DNA of 64,000 nt, from assembly GCA_965238075.1 (NCBI GenBank), contig OZ250173.1, positions 2,880,001-2,944,000 of the forward strand, read 5' to 3'. The notes below the pieces were generated by a model that ran no database searches, was not told where the DNA came from, and saw only the letters and a program-made list of their open reading frames with translations. Every line of letters begins with the position of its first letter. The stretch's first letter is position 1. Source of the stretch: Candidatus Entotheonellaceae bacterium (GTDB lineage Bacteria; Tectomicrobia; Entotheonellia; Entotheonellales; Entotheonellaceae). Positions 4,731-45,909 of the stretch are shown piece by piece. Position numbers and translations under genes: made by a program.

Positions 4731-4792
4731 GATGTTCTCCTTAGTAGCTTGAACGAGACAATGCTGCGGACTTTCGATGCTTGTCTAATGAC

Positions 4793-4809
4793 AGCAATTT
4801 GCATGCCAA
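4793..4809 (-). promoter_or_regulatory. Sigma-54 (-24/-12) promoter of the urt operon
   Basis: Minus strand TTGGCATGCAAATTGCT, exact GG-N10-GC spacing, about 60 bp upstream of urtA. Confidence 0.8.
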
Positions 4810-4907
4810 CTGCGGATGGGGATGCCAAAGCCGTTGTCTGGGGCTGTCCGCCTTGGGTGCGAGACGCGGTAAGGAGTGACCAGCACTCTCTAAGGATGGC
4901 ATTAAAG

Positions 4908-4924
4908 TAACAACGGGATTGTTA
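4908..4924. promoter_or_regulatory. Palindromic candidate activator site TAACAA-N5-TTGTTA
   Basis: Perfect 6-bp inverted repeat about 100 bp upstream of the sigma-54 motif. Confidence 0.4.
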
Positions 4925-5015
4925 GGCGAGGGACCATTTTTGTACGAATCGACATCTTTGTAAGTTTTGGTTTCCTTAAGGTGAGGCCCCGTGGATTGGG
5001 AGGCACCTCAGGGTG

Positions 5016-6287
5016 TCAAAGCAAGTCGAGGCTGGGCGTGATGACCAGATGCAGGCGTCGATGGGCCTCGCGCAGGGTCTGTTCGACCGCCTGTGGGGTT
5101 TCACCGCGGGCAAAAATGAACCCGGGGTAACTGGCGCCCTCGGGGAAGGGCTGGAGTTTCTCATGCGGCTTGGCGGTGATCACAACATCTTCGATGCCGG
5201 GAAGGCTGAGTGCCGCGTCCAGGCCCGTCACATGTTTGAAAAAACCAGCGCGGGGAATGGGTAGCATCATAGTTCCGGCAGCAGCCTGCTCGCGTTTCAG
5301 AGAGGGCAGAGGGAGGCCGCACGCGTGACGGATGAGCAGCTCTTCAAGGGACATCCCGGTCCCAAAGCGCAGCGAGCGGCTTCACAAGCCGCCGATGGGC
5401 CGGGCGGCGAGTTCGAGGAGCCAGGGGCCTTGGCCGTTGACCCGAAATTCGGCGTGCAAAGGACCGTGGCAGAGACCCAGGGTAAGGGCTGCCTGTTCGG
5501 CGCAGCGGACGATCTCGGCCTGCAGGTCCGCACTGAGACGGGAAGGGGTGATGTAGAGGGTTTCTTCAAAAAAAGGACCGTTCAGCGGGTCGGGCTTATC
5601 AAACAGGGCCAACGGTTGCAGACGGCCCGCGGTTAACAGACCTTCCAGGGCGACCTCGGCACCGGGAATGAAACTTTCGATGAGGATCCCTTCGTTGGCT
5701 TCATCTTGTTTCTGGCGTATTTCATGCCGTTCCAGCAAGGCGCGCAACCGAAGGAAGGCGGCAATAAATTCGGCCGGGGTATTGGCCCGCATGACACCGC
5801 GACTCGCCGACAGGGCGAGCGGCTTAACGACACATGGGTACGGAACCTCGTGTTGCACGAGACGGGGGTCGGTTTGCATCGGGAAACACATAAAAGCCGG
5901 CACTTGCGCAAAAGTCGCCTGCAGGCGCTGGCGCATGAGGTATTTGTTGTGGCTGGACAGCACGGCGTCCGGTGGATTGTGCAGCAAACCCAACTCGCGG
6001 CTCGCTTTCGCGGCGCTGAGAAGAGGGGTGTCACCCACGGGGAGAATGGCGGCGACGGGTTGCTGCCCAGCAACATCGACGATGCGCCGTGCGGCTTCCT
6101 GTGGGCGCTCAAACCGTAGCGGCACGGCATCGTCTTCCCAGGGATCGTCCAGAACATCACAGCGGTCGCTGCCGAGCACCGTTTCCACGCCGAGTTGCTG
6201 AGCCGTCCGTATGAATTCTCGTGCCTCATACCCTGTCGTCGTATACAGGAGCATGAGCCGGGAACGGCCGACGTCGGGTGTTGTCAT
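5016..6287 (-). CDS. ATP-grasp (L-amino-acid-ligase-like) protein, probable selenoprotein, 423 aa, UGA 5382-5384 read as Sec
   Basis: Track ORFs 5382..6656 and 5016..5354 share a frame and are separated by one TGA (ELAARPIGGL-U-SRSLRFG); NKYLMR, YPCVVKP..LSASRGV, ESFIPG.E, HAEFR motifs; SECIS-like hairpin follows. Confidence 0.8.
5348..5363 (-). promoter_or_regulatory. Candidate bacterial SECIS for the ATP-grasp UGA
   Basis: GGGAC-CGGGAU-GUCCC upper stem-loop, loop 23 nt after UGA, with an extendable lower stem (GCUGCGCUUU/GAAGAGCUGC). Confidence 0.6.
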
Positions 6288-6339
6288 CCTGATTTCCCCA
6301 GACTGTGCGCATGGCCAGAGTACCAAGAAGACCTTGGTT

Positions 6340-7740
6340 CTAGAACGGAGCAACCTGCTCCTCGGTGGGTTCCGCTCAACAATACCACGGTTCATCAAGG
6401 TAAGGAACGGGCCCACGGGCTGGCGGGGCAACGGGGGCAGGCACCAGCGGAGCGGGAATTTGGGCGGCCTTGTGGGCGGCGTGCCAGAGGCGTTCAAATA
6501 TCTCATAGCGGCCGGCGCCTTCCGTCTCACCGCTTTGGACCAATTGGAGCGCCTCCGTGCAGAGGCCATCCATCCGTACGTCGGGATGTTCCCAGCGGTA
6601 CGACAGGGCGTCGGCGTCGAATTCCCGCAGCGACAGACCCATTTCGGGCAGGTCAAGCAGTTTGGAGCCGTCAGGGATCAGCAAGCGCATGGCGAGTTGG
6701 ATGGGTGCGACGTGTTCGATCAGACCTTGCGTGGCGATTACGGTCAGTAAGTCGATATAGTCGGGCAAAAAGGTCCAGGGCATGAAGGCGACAAAGGTCG
6801 GATTGAGGCAAATTTCGGCTTGCCTGCACCGGGCCAGAGCCTGGAGAAAATCCTGTCGGGTGTGGCCTTTATCGAGCAGACGCAGAACGCCATCCTGGAC
6901 GGACTCCACGGCGCTCGTCACCATCAGGCAGCCGGTTTGGCGGAGGGTGGGCAGATGCTCGTCATACCGCAACAGGTGTTCTATCTTGATGGTGACGTCG
7001 TAGGTGAGGCTGGGGAACTCCCGGTGCAGGTCATGCACCAACGGCACGGCGTGGCCGATACCGTTGAAAAAATCGGGGTCGCCAAAGGTCACGTGCTCGG
7101 CGCCGGCCGCGACCTGGCGCCGGATATCTTCCAGGACGACGTCCCTCTGCACGATGCGAAAACGGCCCTCATAGACCGGCACGATCGGACAATGGCGACA
7201 GAAGTGTTTGCAGCCGCGGCTGGCTTCCGTGTAGCCGACGACGTGTGACCGCTCGCCTATTTTGAGTTGGGCGTAAACTGGCAGGGGGGGTAAATCGCGC
7301 CGATCAGGTACCTGAAACTGTTGGCGATCCAGGGAAGTGACGACTTCCGGCTGTTGGGCAGGGGGTGTGGAATCTGTCTGAAGGCGTTGCACGAGTCGTA
7401 ACAGCCCAGATTCAAATTCCCCACCGAGCAGGGTGGCGGCCCCCAGTTCGCGTAACAATCGGTCATTCATGGGGGCGTAAAGGCCATAGAAGCAGAGGTG
7501 AGCTTGCGGGTTAAGGGTCTTGACATGTTTCGCAACCTGGATGGCAATCCGCGTTGCGGTGTGCATGGGGATGTAGAAGGCCACAAGGTCGGCCGCCAGA
7601 ATGGCCTCACGGTCCAGGCGACTGCGTGACAAATCCTGGCACCGAACCGTCGCTCCTGCCTGTCGTAGCCAAGCGGCAGGGGAAGCCAGGCCAAAAGGCT
7701 GCCGTCCCAATTCATAGGTTGCGAGGAGTACAACACGCAC
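6340..7740 (-). CDS. CUAEP-tail B12-binding-like/radical SAM selenoprotein, 466 aa, UGA 6376-6378 read as Sec
   Basis: GTG start MRVVLLATYELGRQP; CxxxCxxC motif (GCKHFCRHC); C-terminus reads EPWYC-U-AEPTEEQVAPF-TAG, matching the CUAEP/CCAEP-tail family name. Confidence 0.88.
6347..6361 (-). promoter_or_regulatory. Candidate bacterial SECIS for the radical SAM UGA
   Basis: GGAGCA-GGU-UGCUCC 6-bp hairpin, G-starting loop 20 nt after UGA; GAAC/GUUC lower stem. Confidence 0.7.
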
Positions 7741-7771
7741 CGTGGCCACCCTAACGGATGCCGCTCTCAAG

Positions 7772-8092
7772 CTAGCCCTTGCCCATTGGCGGAACGTACC
7801 CTGGCGGCAGGGCAGCGCCTTCGCCGAAAAAGAATTCTTCCATTTGCTGACGGATGAACTCGTCGGCTTGTGGGTCCATGACATTCAGACGGTATTCATT
7901 TAGAATCATCGTCAGGAAGCCTTTCCACAATTCCCAAGCCTCCATGGAGATGTTTTCATAGATACGTTGACGTAATTCAGCCCCTCCCATCGATTCAGTC
8001 ATTTCCAAGGCAATGCCGCCCTGAAGATCGTCCTCATCAATACCAGGAGCCTCTTTTTGAAGCTTTGTGCAGTAGACGAATCGTTGCGTCAT
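7772..8092 (-). CDS. yggX: Fe(II)-trafficking / oxidative damage protection protein (YggX family)
   Basis: N-terminal V.C.KL.KEA.G, RIYENIS.EAW..W...TM.LNEYRL, MEEFFFG. Confidence 0.85.
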   Translation of the reverse strand: MTQRFVYCTKLQKEAPGIDEDDLQGGIALEMTESMGGAELRQRIYENISMEAWELWKGFLTMILNEYRLNVMDPQADEFIRQQMEEFFFGEGAALPPGYVPPMGKG

Positions 8093-8569: not shown

Positions 8570-9289
8570 ATGAACGTGAAAGCAACGCTGACTCAAAAAC
8601 GTGTCGCGGGGCTTATTCCGGCTGCCGGCAGTGGCGTCCGGATGGGTGGGGACATTGCGAAGCCGTTTTTGCAACTCGGCGGGCGAGAGATATTGGCCCG
8701 CACGTTGGACGTTTTTGAACGTTCTGCGGTTATCGATGAGTTATGGGTTGTCGTTGCGGCCAAAAATGTTTCTGCTTGCCAACAGGGAATCATCAAACGT
8801 TATGGATTCCGTAAAGTGCGCGACGTCGTGGCAGGGGGAGCGAGTCGCCAGGAATCGGTTTGGCGTGGTCTGCAGCGGATCGATGCGGCGGTTGACCTCG
8901 TGGTGGTTCATGATGGCGTGCGCCCTTTTGTAACGGAGGCGGTTTTGCAAGAAACGCTGGGTTGTGCCGCACAGCACGGTGCCGCCGTGGCAGCCGTGCC
9001 GCTGCGAGATACGCTGAAGCGCATCTCCGAAGGGGGAGTAGTTGAAGCAACGATCCCGCGGGAAAATTTGTGGCGTACGCAGACGCCGCAGGCATTTCAG
9101 CGGCATCTCCTGATGTCGGCGTATCGTCAGGCTTGGGAGCGAGGCGTGTGTGCGACAGATGACGCCGGTCTGCTCGAATCGATAGGACATCCGGTGAAAG
9201 TGGTCTCGGGGCTGGAAAGCAACATCAAGATTACGACCCCGGAAGACTTGATTTTCAGCGAAGGGTTGCTGCGCACCCCGCGTCAGTGA
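8570..9289 (+). CDS. ispD: 2-C-methyl-D-erythritol 4-phosphate cytidylyltransferase
   Basis: IPAAGSGVRMG, GG.SRQESV, VHDGVRP, QTPQAF, TDDA, NIKITTPEDL. Confidence 0.95.
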   Translation: MNVKATLTQKRVAGLIPAAGSGVRMGGDIAKPFLQLGGREILARTLDVFERSAVIDELWVVVAAKNVSACQQGIIKRYGFRKVRDVVAGGASRQESVWRGLQRIDAAVDLVVVHDGVRPFVTEAVLQETLGCAAQHGAAVAAVPLRDTLKRISEGGVVEATIPRENLWRTQTPQAFQRHLLMSAYRQAWERGVCATDDAGLLESIGHPVKVVSGLESNIKITTPEDLIFSEGLLRTPRQ

Positions 9290-9298
9290 GGGAGGGGC

Positions 9299-9790
9299 AT
9301 GCGAATAGGGTTCGGCTACGATGCGCACCGGCTGGTCCCTGACGCCGCCTTGGTGTTGGGCGGCGTGCCCATTCATCATGAATTTGGCCTGCAAGGACAC
9401 TCTGACGCGGACGTTGTTGTGCATGCGCTGTGCGACGCCATGCTTGGAGCAGCCGCACTTGGCGATATAGGCCAACATTTCCCAAGCACGGACGAACGTT
9501 GGCGAGGAGTTTCCAGTCTCACTATCCTGAAAGCCGTAACACGATTGCTGGCGGAAAACCACCACACGCTGGGGAACGCCGATATCACGATTGTGGCCCA
9601 ACGTCCTCGACTGGCTCCCTACCTTCCGCGCATGGCGGCAACGCTCGCTGCCACCGTACATGCCGAGCCTGCGCAACTGAGCGTCAAGGCTACCACGACG
9701 GACGGACTGGGTTTTCCCGGAATGGAGATGGGCATAGCGGCATACGCGGTTTGTCTTGTATGGCCGTTACAGGCTGCTGCATCCTCTTAA
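9299..9790 (+). CDS. ispF: 2-C-methyl-D-erythritol 2,4-cyclodiphosphate synthase
   Basis: RIGFGYDAH, GHSDADV..HA.CDA.LGA..LGDIG.HFP, VKATT. Confidence 0.95.
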   Translation: MRIGFGYDAHRLVPDAALVLGGVPIHHEFGLQGHSDADVVVHALCDAMLGAAALGDIGQHFPSTDERWRGVSSLTILKAVTRLLAENHHTLGNADITIVAQRPRLAPYLPRMAATLAATVHAEPAQLSVKATTTDGLGFPGMEMGIAAYAVCLVWPLQAAASS

Positions 9791-10882: not shown

Positions 10883-10965
10883 GGGGAGGTTCCCGAGCGG
10901 TCAAAGGGGACAGACTGTAAATCTGTTGGCTGATGTCTTCGGAGGTTCGAATCCTCCCCTCCCCA
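10883..10965 (+). tRNA. tRNA-Tyr(GTA)
   Basis: GGGGAGG/CCTCCCC acceptor stem, loop CTGTAAA, long variable arm, TTCGAAT. Confidence 0.95.
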
Positions 10966-10994: not shown

Positions 10995-11068
10995 GCGGGA
11001 ATAGCTCAGTTGGCTAGAGCATCAGCCTTCCAAGCTGAGGGTCGCGGGTTCGAGTCCCGTTTCCCGCT
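10995..11068 (+). tRNA. tRNA-Gly(TCC)
   Basis: GCGGGAA/TTCCCGC acceptor stem, loop CTTCCAA. Confidence 0.95.
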
Positions 11069-12678: not shown

Positions 12679-12721
12679 GCTGAACGTCAAGTTGCGGGGA
12701 AATTGGGAATCTCAAAACTGT

Positions 12722-12794
12722 AGGCCAGTAGCTCGAACGGTAGAGCACCGGACTCCAAATCCGGGTGATGGGGGTTCGAATCCCTCCTGGCCTG
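12722..12794 (+). tRNA. tRNA-Trp(CCA)
   Basis: AGGCCAG/CTGGCCT acceptor stem, loop CTCCAAA; usual position before secE. Confidence 0.95.
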
Positions 12795-12922
12795 CTTGAA
12801 TTAAAGAAACAGTGTGTGGTTCCCTGTAGCAAACAAATCGCACAGGCGACCAAAGAAAACGCGTCCGCCCTTACTATTTTCGCTGGCTAAGATACCCTCG
12901 TGCTACACTAAAGGTTGCTGCT

Positions 12923-13164: not shown

Positions 13165-13695
13165 ATGAGCAAGCACTGGTATGTTATCCATACATATTCC
13201 GGCCACGAGAATAAAGTTAAGGCTAGTCTTGAAGAACGTCTGAATTCGAGAGGATTGCTTGAACGAGTTGGACAGATTCTGGTGCCAGCAGAGGATGTTG
13301 TTGAAATCAAAGGCGGCAAACGCAAAATATCGTCACGGAAATTCTTTCCAGGATACGTGCTGATTGAGGCGGAGATAGATGACGAAGTTTGGTACGCAAT
13401 CAAAGATACCCCAAAGGTCACCGGATTTCTGGGGGGCGGAAAAGACCCAACGCCTTTGTCGGAGGAAGAAGTAGCTTACATTTGGAATCAGATCAGCAGC
13501 GAAACTTCAGAACCAAAGCCCAAAGTGATTTTTGGGTTGGGTGAGAATGTGCGCGTGACCGATGGGCCATTCACAAACTTTACCGGCGTGATCGGAGAGG
13601 TGCATCCTGAGCGTGGCAAGCTCAAAGTGATGGTCAGTATATTCGGACGTTCTACGCCGGTTGAGTTGGAATTCTTACAGGTGGAATCGATCTGA
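13165..13695 (+). CDS. nusG: Transcription termination/antitermination factor NusG
   Basis: WYVIHTYSGHE, FFPGYVL, KOW motif. Confidence 0.98.
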   Translation: MSKHWYVIHTYSGHENKVKASLEERLNSRGLLERVGQILVPAEDVVEIKGGKRKISSRKFFPGYVLIEAEIDDEVWYAIKDTPKVTGFLGGGKDPTPLSEEEVAYIWNQISSETSEPKPKVIFGLGENVRVTDGPFTNFTGVIGEVHPERGKLKVMVSIFGRSTPVELEFLQVESI

Positions 13696-13717
13696 GATAA
13701 ATACAGATTTTAACCAA

Positions 13718-13781
13718 TATGCTTGATGGCGCATGAACGTTGCCACGGTTATGCTTGATGGCGCATGAACGTTGCCACGGT
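13718..13781 (+). repeat. Exact 32-bp tandem duplication in the nusG-rplK spacer
   Basis: TATGCTTGATGGCGCATGAACGTTGCCACGGT at 13718-13749 and 13750-13781. Confidence 0.95.
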
Positions 13782-13794
13782 AAGGAAATAGTAG

Positions 13795-14220
13795 ATGGCG
13801 AAACAGGTTGTAACGAAAATAAAACTGCAGGTGCCCGCTGGCCAAGCCAACCCTTCCCCTCCAGTGGGCCCCGCATTGGGTCAGCATGGTGTGAATATCA
13901 TGGAGTTTTGCAAGGCATTCAACGCCCACACTCAGGCCCAGGCCGGCATGATTACTCCGGTGGTTGTGACCGTGTACGCCGATCGTTCGTTTTCGTTCAT
14001 TACAAAGTCTCCTCCCGCCGCTGAATTGATAAAGCAGGCGGCCGGGCTTGCCAAGGGAGCGTCGACACCGAATCGGGAAAAGATTGGACAAGTGACAACA
14101 ATGCAGCTGCAGCAGATCGCTGAAACCAAGCAAGCTGACCTTAATGCGAATACTGTTGAGGCCGCAATACAGATTATCGCTGGGACAGCGCGCAGCATGG
14201 GCGTTGAGGTCGTCGATTGA
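13795..14220 (+). CDS. rplK: 50S ribosomal protein L11
   Basis: [23 protein letters not shown]. Confidence 0.98.
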
Positions 14221-14243
14221 CATTTAATGAGGGGACACGTCGC

Positions 14244-27785: not shown

Positions 27786-28979
27786 ATGTCGAAGGCGAAA
27801 TTCAAGCGTAGCAAGCCGCACGTCAACGTCGGGACGATCGGTCACGTAGACCACGGCAAGACGACGCTCACGTCTGCCATAACGCAGGTACTGGCAGCGC
27901 AAGGCAAGGCGGACTATGTGCCCTTTGACCAGATCGACAAGGCGCCCGAGGAAAAAGCCCGCGGCATCACCATTGCTACTGCACACGTGGAATACGAAAG
28001 CGAGAACCGCCACTACGCCCACGTCGATTGTCCGGGTCACGCCGACTACGTGAAGAACATGATCACGGGTGCAGCGCAGATGGACGGGGCGATCTTGGTG
28101 GTGAGTGCCGCCGATGGCGCGATGCCGCAGACGCGCGAGCATATCCTGTTGGCGCGTCAGGTTGGGGTGCCCTACATCGTGGTGTTCATGAACAAAGTGG
28201 ACATGGTGGACGATGAAGAGTTGCTGGACTTGGTGGAGTTGGAGTTGCGGGAGTTGCTTAGCAAGTACGAATTTCCTGGCGACGACATTCCGATTATCCG
28301 GGGCAGTGCACTGCAGGCCTTGGAGAGTGGCGATCCGAGTGCTTCGGAGAGCGCTTGCGTCTTTGAGTTAATGGGTGCGATTGATGAATACGTGCCGACG
28401 CCGCAGCGCGCCATAGACCGGCCGTTTCTGATGCCCGTGGAGGACGTATTCACGATATCGGGTCGAGGGACGGTGGCGACGGGTCGTATTGAGCGTGGCG
28501 TGGTGACGGTAGGCGACGATGTGGAGATCGTGGGGATGAAGGAGACGCACAAGACGGTGGCGACGGGCGTGGAGATGTTTCGGAAGATATTGGACCGTGG
28601 CGAGGCAGGTGATAACATAGGGGTATTGTTGCGCGGTGTGAAGCGCGATGAGATAGAGCGTGGTCAGGTATTGGCGAAGCCGGGTTCGATTACGCCACAC
28701 ACGCGTTTTCAGGCAGAGGTGTACGTGTTGTCGAAAGACGAGGGAGGTCGTCACACGCCGTTTTTCAATGGCTACCGGCCGCAGTTTTACTTTCGCACGA
28801 CGGATGTGACGGGTGTGGTGACATTGCCCTCGGGTACGGAGATGGTGATGCCTGGGGACAACGTTGGCGTGGAGGTGGAGTTAATCACGCCGATTGCTTT
28901 GGAGAAAGAGTTGCGCTTTGCGATCCGTGAGGGCGGCCGGACGGTAGGGGCGGGCGTCGTTAGTGAAATACTGGCGTAG
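27786..28979 (+). CDS. tuf: Elongation factor Tu (copy 2)
   Basis: Protein identical to copy 1; true ATG at 27786. Confidence 0.99.
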
Positions 28980-29014
28980 GGTGGCCACAAATCACATAAA
29001 GGCTTGATGGAGCG

Positions 29015-29323
29015 ATGGCTGGACAAAAGATTCGTATACGTCTTAAGGCGTATGATCATCGGATTCTCGATCAATCGGTGGGCGAAATTGTAGAAACGGC
29101 TAAACGAACCGGGGCTAGAATTGTGGGTCCCATTCCTTTGCCGACAGTGTTGAATAAATATACGGTTTTGCGCTCGCCACATGTTGACAAGAAATCCCGT
29201 GAACAGTTTGAGATTCGGACGCATAAGCGCCTTTTGGACATTGTTGAGCCAACTCCGCAGACCGTGGAGGCCCTGATGAAACTAGACTTGTCCGCAGGGA
29301 TTGATGTGGAAATCAAGCTGTAG
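29015..29323 (+). CDS. rpsJ: 30S ribosomal protein S10
   Basis: [25 protein letters not shown]. Confidence 0.99.
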
Positions 29324-43892: not shown

Positions 43893-45909
43893 TGGATGGT
43901 AACGAAATTGACCTCCCAATTCTCGTGTGAAGGTATCCGTACGATGCCGATTGTACTTATGCGCGCCGTTATAGCCCCATAAATGCTGCCCGCGAACCAC
44001 CCCGTCTCACAAATGGCTGAGCGCTCCCGCTATTGCTACTTGATCATGATTCAGCGCCTCTACAATCCCCACAACGAATAACCCGTTCAGAACAAAAGCA
44101 AGCAACGCGTCCCCTTGGCGTCCAACATATAACTGCCCGCTCCCCGGTAAAGTGGCCGATAAAACGCCAGCTAGAGCATATCCGGTTCTAACTGTATAAT
44201 TCCGGTCCTGCCTATCCCAAGTCGTCTTTCCCCCAGCATCATCGGCAGGAGACCATCAGCCATGGCCGCTTACCTGTCCCAAGACCTCCGTATCCGCGTC
44301 ATCCGAGCCATCGAAGGCGGCATGTCACGCAACGCCGCCGCCAAACGATTCGGTATCAGCTCCGCTAGCGCCGTAAGGTGGATGCAGACCTACCTCCGGA
44401 CCGGACGCACCCAGGCAAAACCCTGTGGCGGTGACCGCCGATCCGGGCGTATCGAAGCGCATGCCGACTTTCTCATGGGCACCCTACAGGAGACACCCGA
44501 CATCACCCTGGCCGAACTCCGACAGCGCCTTTTCAGCGAGCGTGGCGAGACCTTCGCCATCAGCACCGTCCACGAGTTCTTGCGGCGACATGGCATCACG
44601 TTCAAAAAAAGACGGCACCTGCCCGTGAACAGGACCGTGATGACGTAGCCTGCCCAGCGGCAAGCCTGGATCGCCCAGCAGCCGCATCTTGACCCAGAGA
44701 AGCTCGTCTTCATTGACGAGACCGGAGCCAACACGAAGATGGCCAGGCGGCACGGACGCTCGCCGCGCGGCAAGCGCTGCCGGGCATCGGTGCCACACGG
44801 CCATTGGAAGACCACCCCATGGGTGTGTGGACTTCGCTTGCGTGGTCTGACGGCGCCCATGGTCATTGATGGTGCCCTGGATGGCGCAGCCTTCGGCACC
44901 TATGCCGACTCGTTTCTGGGTCCAAGTCTTCGCGCGGGCGACGTGGTTGTGCTCGATAATTTTGCGGCGCACAAAGTTAAGGGGGTGCGCGAGGCCATCG
45001 GCAAGTCGGGCGCAACGCTCTTGTACCTGCCGCCGTACTCGCCGGATTTCAATCCGATAGAGCAGGCCTTTGCGAAGCCTCAAGGCGTTGCTTCGCAAGG
45101 CGGCAGCATGGACTGTTGACGCTCTGGAGTCGGCCATTGTTACGGCACTGGAGGCATTTTCCCCTGAGGAAGGCGCCAACTATTTCACTCATGCAGGATA
45201 TAAACAGTATGATCCGAAAATGCTCTAGAAGGGGGATTTCCGAGACAGGTCTCCCTTGTTCAGAATTACTTCGACAATTTGTTGGGCTGTCTCGCGAAAC
45301 GAATTATGGGTGGGGATGCTTTGAAATTGTTCCGTGGCCTTCTGCCATTCTTACTGATGCAGCAGCGCCCAAGCATCCCGGTAAGTAGCATGTTCTCCGA
45401 ACGCCGTCCAGGTGAGTGGCGCCTGACAGCATCGTAAAAGTCTTCCGCTGTCTCATATTTGCCCTGTCGCATCAGACACTTACCTTGCCAAAGCCATGCC
45501 TGTTTGCCGTAAGGCGTATCCGGATACAGCTTGGCTACCTCGTCAAAGACCTTCAGAGCCTTGCCATAAGTCCATGCCGCGATAAGAAAGCTAGGCCCAC
45601 GCGAAAGTGGGCCATAGAGCGCCGTATGTCATGCGGGAAGGTGAAGAGAAATCGCCTGTATTCCGTGATGGCACGGTAGTACTCTCTTTTTCGCATCAAC
45701 TCTGCTGCGAAGGCCAACATCGGATCCGGAGAGAACGCCTGTTCTGACGACGATGGCGCGGGCGAGACAGGTTCGGCGTTTAGCCGGAAACCGGGGGCTT
45801 GGAACAGGCAGGGAAGGTGCACAAAACAAAGCATCATGGCGGTCCAAAACCGAAGCAAGCCAGAACTCCACCTTGTGTGTTGAAAGTCTGTTGAATCACG
45901 GCACGACAA
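43880..45909 (-). pseudogene. TPR-repeat / TM2-like membrane protein pseudogene interrupted by IS630 (ends approximate)
   Basis: Frameshifted TPR fragments (EYYRAITEYRRF; YGKALKVFDEVAKLYP...QGKYETA) right of the IS; ...RKSP continues across the IS as LAGVLSATLPGSGQLYVGR. Confidence 0.7.
44172..45227 (+). mobile_element. IS630-family insertion sequence, degenerate
   Basis: TA at both ends; imperfect terminal IRs TAGAGCATATCCGGTTCTAACTGTATA vs TAGAGCATTTTCGGATCATACTGTTTA; HTH orfA (YLSQDLRIRV), A7G slippery site 44604-44611, DDE motifs VFIDETG, VVLDN..AH, LPPYSPDFNPIE. Confidence 0.92.

Follow-up and report, generated by a model that had tools for sequence, protein, structure and literature searches.

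Two adjoining UGA-containing genes for a CUAEP-tail radical SAM protein and an ATP-grasp ligase in a Candidatus Entotheonellaceae genome

A stretch of 64,000 nucleotides (nt) from the genome of Candidatus Entotheonellaceae bacterium (assembly GCA_965238075.1, contig OZ250173.1, positions 2,880,001 to 2,944,000; this whole stretch is called the window below) carries two adjoining genes on the minus strand, one for a radical S-adenosylmethionine (SAM) protein and one for an ATP-grasp ligase, each with a single in-frame UGA codon. The locus raises the question of whether both codons are read as selenocysteine (Sec) and, if so, what a radical SAM enzyme and a ligase of this kind may make together. 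A previous, sequence-only reading had taken the two genes for a two-enzyme selenoprotein module related to the arsenic enzyme ArsL. The observation of two adjoining selenoprotein genes is confirmed. Both genes of the proposed module stand, while a third conserved gene, similar to yggX, had been overlooked: the module consists of a yggX-like gene, a radical SAM gene of the family NF040546 and an ATP-grasp gene of the L-amino-acid-ligase type, and in the lineage of the window both enzymes are selenoproteins. Its features, including the hairpins that resemble a selenocysteine insertion sequence (SECIS), are as follows (aa, amino acids).

7772..8092, minus strand: yggX-like Fe(2+)-trafficking gene, first in the module (106 aa; stop TAG 7772-7774; PF04362)
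6340..7740, minus strand: CUAEP-tail radical SAM selenoprotein gene (466 aa; start GTG 7740; stop TAG 6340-6342; NF040546)
6376..6378, minus strand: UGA, predicted Sec455 of the radical SAM protein (Cys454-Sec455 tail); homologues have U or C in this column
6347..6361, minus strand: SECIS-like hairpin GGAGC-AGGUU-GCUCC of the radical SAM gene, stem from 15 nt past the UGA
5016..6287, minus strand: L-amino-acid-ligase-type ATP-grasp selenoprotein gene (423 aa; start ATG 6287; stop TGA 5016-5018)
5382..5384, minus strand: UGA, predicted Sec302 of the ligase in the motif AARPIGG-L-U-S-R; homologues have Cys or TGA in this column
5348..5363, minus strand: SECIS-like hairpin GGGAC-CGGGAU-GUCCC of the ligase gene, stem from 19 nt past the UGA

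Two in-frame UGA codons and their reading

The genes follow each other in the order yggX-like, radical SAM and ligase, with 31 nt between the stop of the first and the start of the second and 52 nt between the stop of the second and the ATG of the third. Under translation table 11 the radical SAM gene appears as an open reading frame (ORF) at 6376..7884 that is halted at the TGA 6376-6378, and the ligase gene is split into two ORFs, 5382..6656 and 5016..5354. When TGA is read as U, the radical SAM protein ends in EPWYC-U-AEPTEEQVAPF before the TAG at 6340-6342, and the ligase continues through AARPIGGL-U-SRSLRFG to its full length of 423 aa. The GTG at 7740 agrees with the N-termini of homologues. 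Gene positions, the 52-nt gap, co-orientation and the truncated and split frames, all given by the sequence-only reading, were reproduced by ORF calling. The Sec forms of both genes are thereby misannotated: in public gene records the Sec-form ligase is cut to proteins of 301 aa (some of 290-312 aa), and with ordinary ORF calling the radical SAM protein breaks off short of its Sec.

The genome of the window encodes tRNA-Sec (73.9 bits, cut-off 47) as well as selB (357.7 bits), selA (606.7 bits) and selD (318.8 bits), all above their cut-offs, so that the Sec machinery which the earlier reading called for was found. Both UGA codons align with cysteine: column 455 of the radical SAM protein is occupied by U in 36 and by C in 16 of the 52 aligned rows, and column 302 of the ligase by Cys in 79 and by TGA in 8 of the 87 rows. 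The hairpin of the radical SAM gene (5-8 bp; loop starting 20-23 nt past the UGA; loops AGGUU, AGUU, AGUUG and similar) is present in 34 of the 38 distinct UGA forms, and three further UGA forms, the sequences of which were read by eye, carry it with one mismatch. Since at least eight different stem sequences occur among these hairpins, the pairing is maintained by compensatory change. Among the Cys-Cys forms the hairpin is found in just 2 of 17 and lost in the other 15.

The ligase hairpin is kept in all nine distinct Sec-form sequences, whose proteins are 67-98% identical to that of the window. Third positions of codons +6 to +11 are unchanged among these nine forms, whereas adjacent degenerate codons vary freely, and the sole change in the hairpin, A>G, leaves a G.U pair. 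Complete pairing at the same columns (5 of 5) occurs in only 3 of the 79 Cys forms. The 121 residues past the UGA are as conserved (66-98% identity) as the 301 residues ahead of it (67-98%). The SECIS-like hairpins were judged by covariation and by conservation at synonymous sites rather than by folding energy, the mean of which differs little between UGA and Cys forms of the radical SAM gene (-16.1 vs -13.5 kcal/mol). On balance, both are judged to be true selenoprotein genes, each with its own SECIS-like hairpin, much as the first reading had it.

The presence of Sec in both partners was taken, in that reading, as a sign of shared soft-metal or redox chemistry. The radical SAM gene is in the Sec form at 32 of the 49 loci where it lies near a ligase gene, and outside the window's lineage such forms are paired with Cys ligases. 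The Sec-form ligase is confined to one clade of the window's phylum, represented by nine related genomes (genomes and loci are numbered G and L here); the compared stretches of locus L064 are identical to those of L117, which comes from G013, so that L064 does not count as a tenth genome. As the Sec ligase represents a single evolutionary event, always on the background of a Sec radical SAM protein, no co-variation can be read from it. A candidate for an independent Sec ligase in the acidobacterial genome G157 was rejected because its tblastn alignment (residues 10-416) contains no in-frame stop.

A paralogue of the ligase is encoded outside the window in the same genome (G000:C1:2400419-2401654; L105:8417-9673, plus strand). 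It shares 48% identity and the same three Pfam domains with the ligase of the window and Cys replaces Sec in it. It is not accompanied by any radical SAM, yggX, Nfu or DUF169 gene, its neighbours being ORFs that by eye resemble a pyrroloquinoline quinone (PQQ)-type dehydrogenase and purA. Its closest relatives are found in Entotheonella, Poribacteria and Methylomirabilales. In a quick tree the ligase of the window groups with that of L064 (support 100), and the paralogue falls into a separate group.

The two enzyme families and their linkage

The radical SAM protein matches the Pfam domain Radical_SAM and, over positions 1-467 of 468, the NCBIfam model NF040546 with 632.3 bits (cut-off 500; 625.7 bits in the genome-level search), and it has the CUAEP tail and the whole length in common with this family, with no differences. 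Its assignment as a full member of NF040546, the CUAEP/CCAEP-tail radical SAM (seleno)proteins, is solid. The next best model is that of ArsL (NF040542), matched at positions 2-414 of 423 with 276.4 bits, below the cut-off of 450, and further NCBIfam models reach at most 50.5 bits. Judged by these profile hidden Markov model scores, ArsL is the closest named relative, as had been proposed, and the protein would be a sister of ArsL, itself no ArsL. The earlier reading was made without knowledge of the catalogued family. Among open PubMed Central (PMC) papers and bioRxiv, NF040546/CUAEP was found in one preprint only, which lists it as an uncharacterised CU selenoprotein family and connects CU motifs with heavy-metal handling (Haft, 2022; 10.1101/2022.07.06.499078).

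The likeness to ArsL comprises homology over almost the full length, the CxxxCxxC motif and a C-terminal tail with soft ligands. The tails themselves differ: ArsL ends in RCCLKC, with three Cys, whereas the tail of the window protein, YCUAEPTEEQVAPF, offers Cys and Sec, i.e. two soft ligands. The genomic setting differs as well, ArsL being encoded in arsQML/ars operons together with the methyltransferase ArsM, whereas the partner in the window is an ATP-grasp ligase and there is no ars operon. The Cys residues of CxxxCxxC (C177, C181 and C184) and C454 are invariant in all 52 rows, as is C/U455 if both residues are counted, and C271 is present in 50. No other Cys is conserved, and thus no motif for a second cluster can be recognised. 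For this reason the idea that an auxiliary Fe-S cluster donates sulfur, prompted by the Nfu gene near some relatives, was discarded.

The AlphaFold model of the protein (mean predicted local distance difference test, pLDDT, 79.8; predicted template modelling score, pTM, 0.81) consists of a Rossmann-like N-terminal domain and a radical SAM core. Over the final 25 or so residues the pLDDT is about 50 and regular structure is nearly absent. Among solved folds, AprD4, MgmA, OxsB, TsrM and MiaB come nearest, with template modelling scores (TM) of about 0.55-0.66 and AprD4 closest at 0.61-0.62; among solved structures there was no close sequence relative (best E 3.4e-5). Past the vicinal pair, Cys-Cys forms of the protein (L076:6523-7974 and 15 other loci) mostly extend further than the window's Sec form: about 17-30 residues follow CC in 15 of 16 and 12 in L055, against 11 residues after U in the window. 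These extensions mostly end in FV, YV, QV or FF; the window protein, like several other Sec forms, ends in F.

The ligase contains the domains ATP-grasp_4 (105.5 bits), LAL_C2 (61.1 bits) and ATPgrasp_N (30.0 bits), all above the Pfam cut-offs, and reaches no equivalog cut-off in NCBIfam (BacD model: 40.5 bits, cut-off 850). Its family profile matches the L-amino-acid ligase BL00235 (PDB 3VOT) with E 1e-63 over profile positions 48-412 and BacD (3VMM) with E about 1e-27. The three-domain ATP-grasp architecture and the motif E-x-A-A-R-x-x-G are common to all of them. Residue 302 sets the family apart, being an invariant Cys/Sec here and Ser in BL00235 and Met in BacD, and it is the sole invariant Cys of the family (87 rows). 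In the sequence alignment it stands two residues beyond the position of Trp332 of BacD, which is a key pocket residue according to a review that also attributes the synthesis of Met-Gly and Met-Met to BL00235 (PMC6920838). Cys43 of the DRC motif was considered as a second soft ligand and rejected, as only 57 of the 87 rows have Cys there. No description of an ATP-grasp selenoprotein was found in open PMC papers or bioRxiv. Position 302 is informative because Sec usually replaces Cys where the residue takes part in chemistry and because no other Cys of the family is invariant.

The linkage of the two genes was traced with the ligase as the starting point. When a single genome per species was scanned, at least 593 relatives were found, and the neighbours of the best 80 loci were analysed; these loci belong to Acidobacteriota, Methylomirabilota/Rokubacteria, Nitrospirota, Chloroflexota, Poribacteria, Entotheonellaceae, Dormiibacterota and others. 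At 49 of the 80 loci, in at least eight phyla, the ligase gene has a CUAEP-family gene no more than 8 kb away, and at 48 it has a yggX-like gene within this distance. Both accompany the ligase at 36 loci, the radical SAM gene only at 13, yggX only at 12 and neither at 19. Ten of the 31 loci that lack the radical SAM gene have less than 1 kb of DNA on one flank, and all four genomes in which a ligase locus with full flanks lacks it have exactly one such gene elsewhere, above the family cut-off. The genes of the pair may be co-oriented, convergent or separated by another gene, and this variety points to selection rather than to inherited synteny. The intervening gene is of the Nfu type at L045, L046, L059 and L077 (Pfam match on L046, the others read from sequence) and a DUF169 gene at L032, L034, L063 and L073 (Pfam match on L034 and L073, the others likewise read from sequence). 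Apart from the radical SAM gene, YggX, Nfu and DUF169, only lineage-specific housekeeping genes recur around the 80 loci. The yggX-like protein of the window itself is matched by PF04362 (Iron_traffic) with 95.9 bits (cut-off 27).

Counts by genome agree with this. Among 201 genomes of Acidobacteriota, with the ligase accepted at E 1e-60, 30 contain both genes, one the radical SAM gene only (G054), five the ligase only and 165 neither; the ligase-only five include the unpublished G044, so this count partly rests on G044. In 16 of the 30 genomes with both, the two matches are at most 1.1 kb apart. In the small phylum of the window, the radical SAM gene, always with one TGA, was found in 15 of 17 genomes, and in nine of these 15 (G000, G001 and G007-G013) a Sec-form ligase gene adjoins it. 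The linkage between radical SAM gene and ligase gene is solid, and the conservation of the neighbourhood that the sequence-only reading had counted on extends across phyla. As that reading also said, the pair is uncharacterised, no account of it being found in open PMC papers or bioRxiv. In four large-genome relatives from the same phylum (L106 of G006, L108 of G003, L109 of G005 and L107 of G015) neither a ligase gene nor yggX is linked to the Sec-form radical SAM gene, which at the G015 locus is followed instead by ORFs identified by eye as NifU-like and DUF169-like.

Possible chemistry of the pair

The closest guide to the function of the pair is ArsL, which cleaves SAM to methylthioadenosine and a 3-amino-3-carboxypropyl (ACP) radical, binds As(III) by its C-terminal Cys motif and keeps its product protein-bound until it is oxidised and taken over by the next enzyme, ArsM (10.1101/2024.02.01.577332). 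The arsenite binding by the Cys tail of ArsL, invoked in the earlier reading, is borne out by this work and also by 10.64898/2026.04.29.721666, where As is bound by all three tail Cys. An ArsL-like transfer of ACP to a soft atom held by the tail, after which the ligase takes over the product, has in our estimation about an even chance of being correct. According to this reading, the radical SAM enzyme would cleave SAM non-canonically to form the ACP radical, which would join a soft atom (metalloid or chalcogen) held by the flexible Cys454-Sec455 tail. Cys271, which is almost invariant, might take part in holding this atom, and the outcome would be a protein-bound 2-amino-4-X-butanoate, a type of compound to which methionine itself belongs. 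The ligase would then receive the amino acid, its invariant pocket residue Cys/Sec302 binding the soft atom by thiol/selenol exchange, and use ATP to activate the carboxylate, so that an amide bond and a dipeptide-like product might be formed. YggX, or Nfu elsewhere, might provide or repair the [4Fe-4S] cluster. In the lineage of the window one change from Cys to Sec may have upgraded the ligase, while most other lineages combine Sec455 with Cys302.

Several points weigh against this scheme or against the linkage and Sec assignments beneath it. The mode of SAM cleavage is taken over from ArsL, whose model the window protein misses (276 vs 450 bits); the tail has two soft ligands against three in ArsL; and we know of no enzymology for any member of NF040546. 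The pocket place of residue 302 derives from the sequence alignment with BacD, not from coordinates. Single-sequence folding of both hairpin regions was no better than that of shuffled sequences (z -0.71 and 0.03). The ligase family is also found without the radical SAM gene, and in Acidobacteriota a search at E 1e-60 gave no ligase for one of the 31 genomes that carry the radical SAM gene. In the phylum of the window, G003-G006 and G015 carry only a Cys ligase of the paralogue type, elsewhere in the genome, and the ligase was not found in G002, which is 62% complete. Related genomes are not independent, and co-occurrence counts overstate the support. Finally, the module of the window is set among housekeeping genes, and no ars, selenium-metabolism or transporter gene is conserved near the 80 ligase loci.

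A serious rival, possible though unlikely, is that the Cys-Sec tail works as a redox swinging arm (selenenylsulfide) of an enzyme with canonical 5'-deoxyadenosyl radical chemistry, which would act on an amino acid or a small metabolite without any metalloid, Cys/Sec302 of the ligase being a redox or thioester residue. Large thioredoxin reductases carry a flexible C-terminal Gly-Cys-Sec-Gly tail with Cys-Cys in other lineages, and the exchange of Sec and Cys at the vicinal pair of the radical SAM tail follows the same pattern, although fold and chemistry are unrelated. Among solved structures the fold comes nearest to that of AprD4, a radical SAM dehydratase of the canonical kind, and Fe-S helper genes would suit any radical SAM enzyme exposed to oxygen. 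On the other hand, a fold likeness at TM 0.6 is uninformative on the mode of SAM cleavage, while by sequence ArsL is far nearer than the canonical families (276 vs at most 50 bits), and the reported tie of CU motifs to heavy-metal handling also argues against a purely redox role.

The soft atom of the preferred ACP-transfer scheme might be As(III), in which case an arsinothricin-like organoarsenical amino acid or dipeptide would be formed; this special case of the scheme, the product envisaged from the start, is speculative and rather unlikely. It is suggested by ArsL, the only characterised relative, with its binding of As(III) through C-terminal Cys, and by the three soft ligands that the vicinal Cys-Sec together with Cys271 could supply. 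Sponge relatives of the organism have been reported to accumulate arsenic. Against it, the window protein is below the ArsL cut-off and has no RCCLKC motif; no arsM, arsQ, arsR or other ars gene occurs among the recurring neighbours of the 80 loci or among the 42 larger window ORFs that were scanned; and the spread of the ligase family would suit a general function better than an arsenic antibiotic.

That the pair modifies a protein or a ribosomal peptide, as for ribosomally synthesised and post-translationally modified peptides (RiPPs), or even YggX itself, and not free amino acids, is improbable. Pairs of radical SAM and ATP-grasp enzymes are frequent in RiPP clusters, and a small conserved protein, YggX, is encoded nearby at 48 of the 80 loci; yet the ligase has the ATP-grasp_4 and LAL_C2 architecture and the strong match to a free-amino-acid ligase, no conserved short ORF recurs besides YggX, Nfu and DUF169, and YggX is an ordinary member of PF04362 whose place is taken by Nfu in other phyla. 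The weakest alternative, that the TGA of the ligase is a real stop in a split or decaying gene yielding a protein of 301 aa and perhaps another of 112 aa, would fit the public records of about 301 aa and the lack of special stability in single-sequence folding, but is very unlikely, as the TGA aligns with the invariant Cys of homologues, is retained in frame in nine distinct sequences down to 67% identity with the downstream part equally conserved and the hairpin preserved at synonymous sites, and occurs in a genome with Sec machinery.

Surroundings, occurrence and significance

Among the 42 larger ORFs of the window, genes of a urea/branched-chain-type ABC transporter, ispD, ispF and genes of translation and transcription were recognised, and a few ORFs had no Pfam match. 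Long ORFs without a match at E 1e-5 are located at 8744-9676, 13678-14223, 27786-29224, 44487-45179 and 62946-63803 on the minus strand and at 58339-59406 on the plus strand; several of them oppose known genes (8744-9676 lies opposite ispD and ispF) and are probably not genes. Weak matches to the tRNA-Sec model below its threshold (36.9-40.6 bits) flank tuf, at 10883-10964, 10995-11067 and 12720-12795, and probably represent ordinary tRNA genes in this tuf/nusG region.

The window stretch is present in 20 sequencing runs from eight studies, some of them of sponge metagenomes, and eight of the runs are RNA libraries. The locus is covered by contigs from four RNA-library runs of two studies; as such libraries may contain DNA and contigs are no proof of transcripts, this weighs neither way on expression. 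One contig from an RNA library, 5897-6438, runs from the terminal part of the radical SAM gene into the beginning of the ligase gene, and two runs have no cover at 4774-4910. At window position 5003, just past the ligase stop, contigs of three of the four RNA-library runs have a GGA insertion, which is non-coding strain variation.

To our knowledge, ArsL is the sole characterised member of its branch of radical SAM enzymes, and the formation of an ACP radical by an enzyme with the canonical CxxxCxxC motif is so far unique to it. NF040546 is the sister family of ArsL and far more widespread, and its association with an amino-acid ligase and with Fe-S helper genes is firm. By replacing the one invariant Cys of the ligase, Sec singles out residue 302 as chemically active, something uncommon in ATP-grasp ligases. 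If the scheme were extended to its widest form, which is doubtful, the pair would represent a second natural radical route to an amino acid with a carbon-heteroatom bond, that is, a new pathway to C-As or C-Sb bonds or the first radical formation of a C-Se or C-S bond by ACP transfer. The nascent 2-amino-4-X-butanoate would then always remain bound to Se or S of a protein on its way from the Cys-Sec tail to the Sec of the ligase and into a dipeptide, and such a route may be widespread in soil and sponge bacteria.

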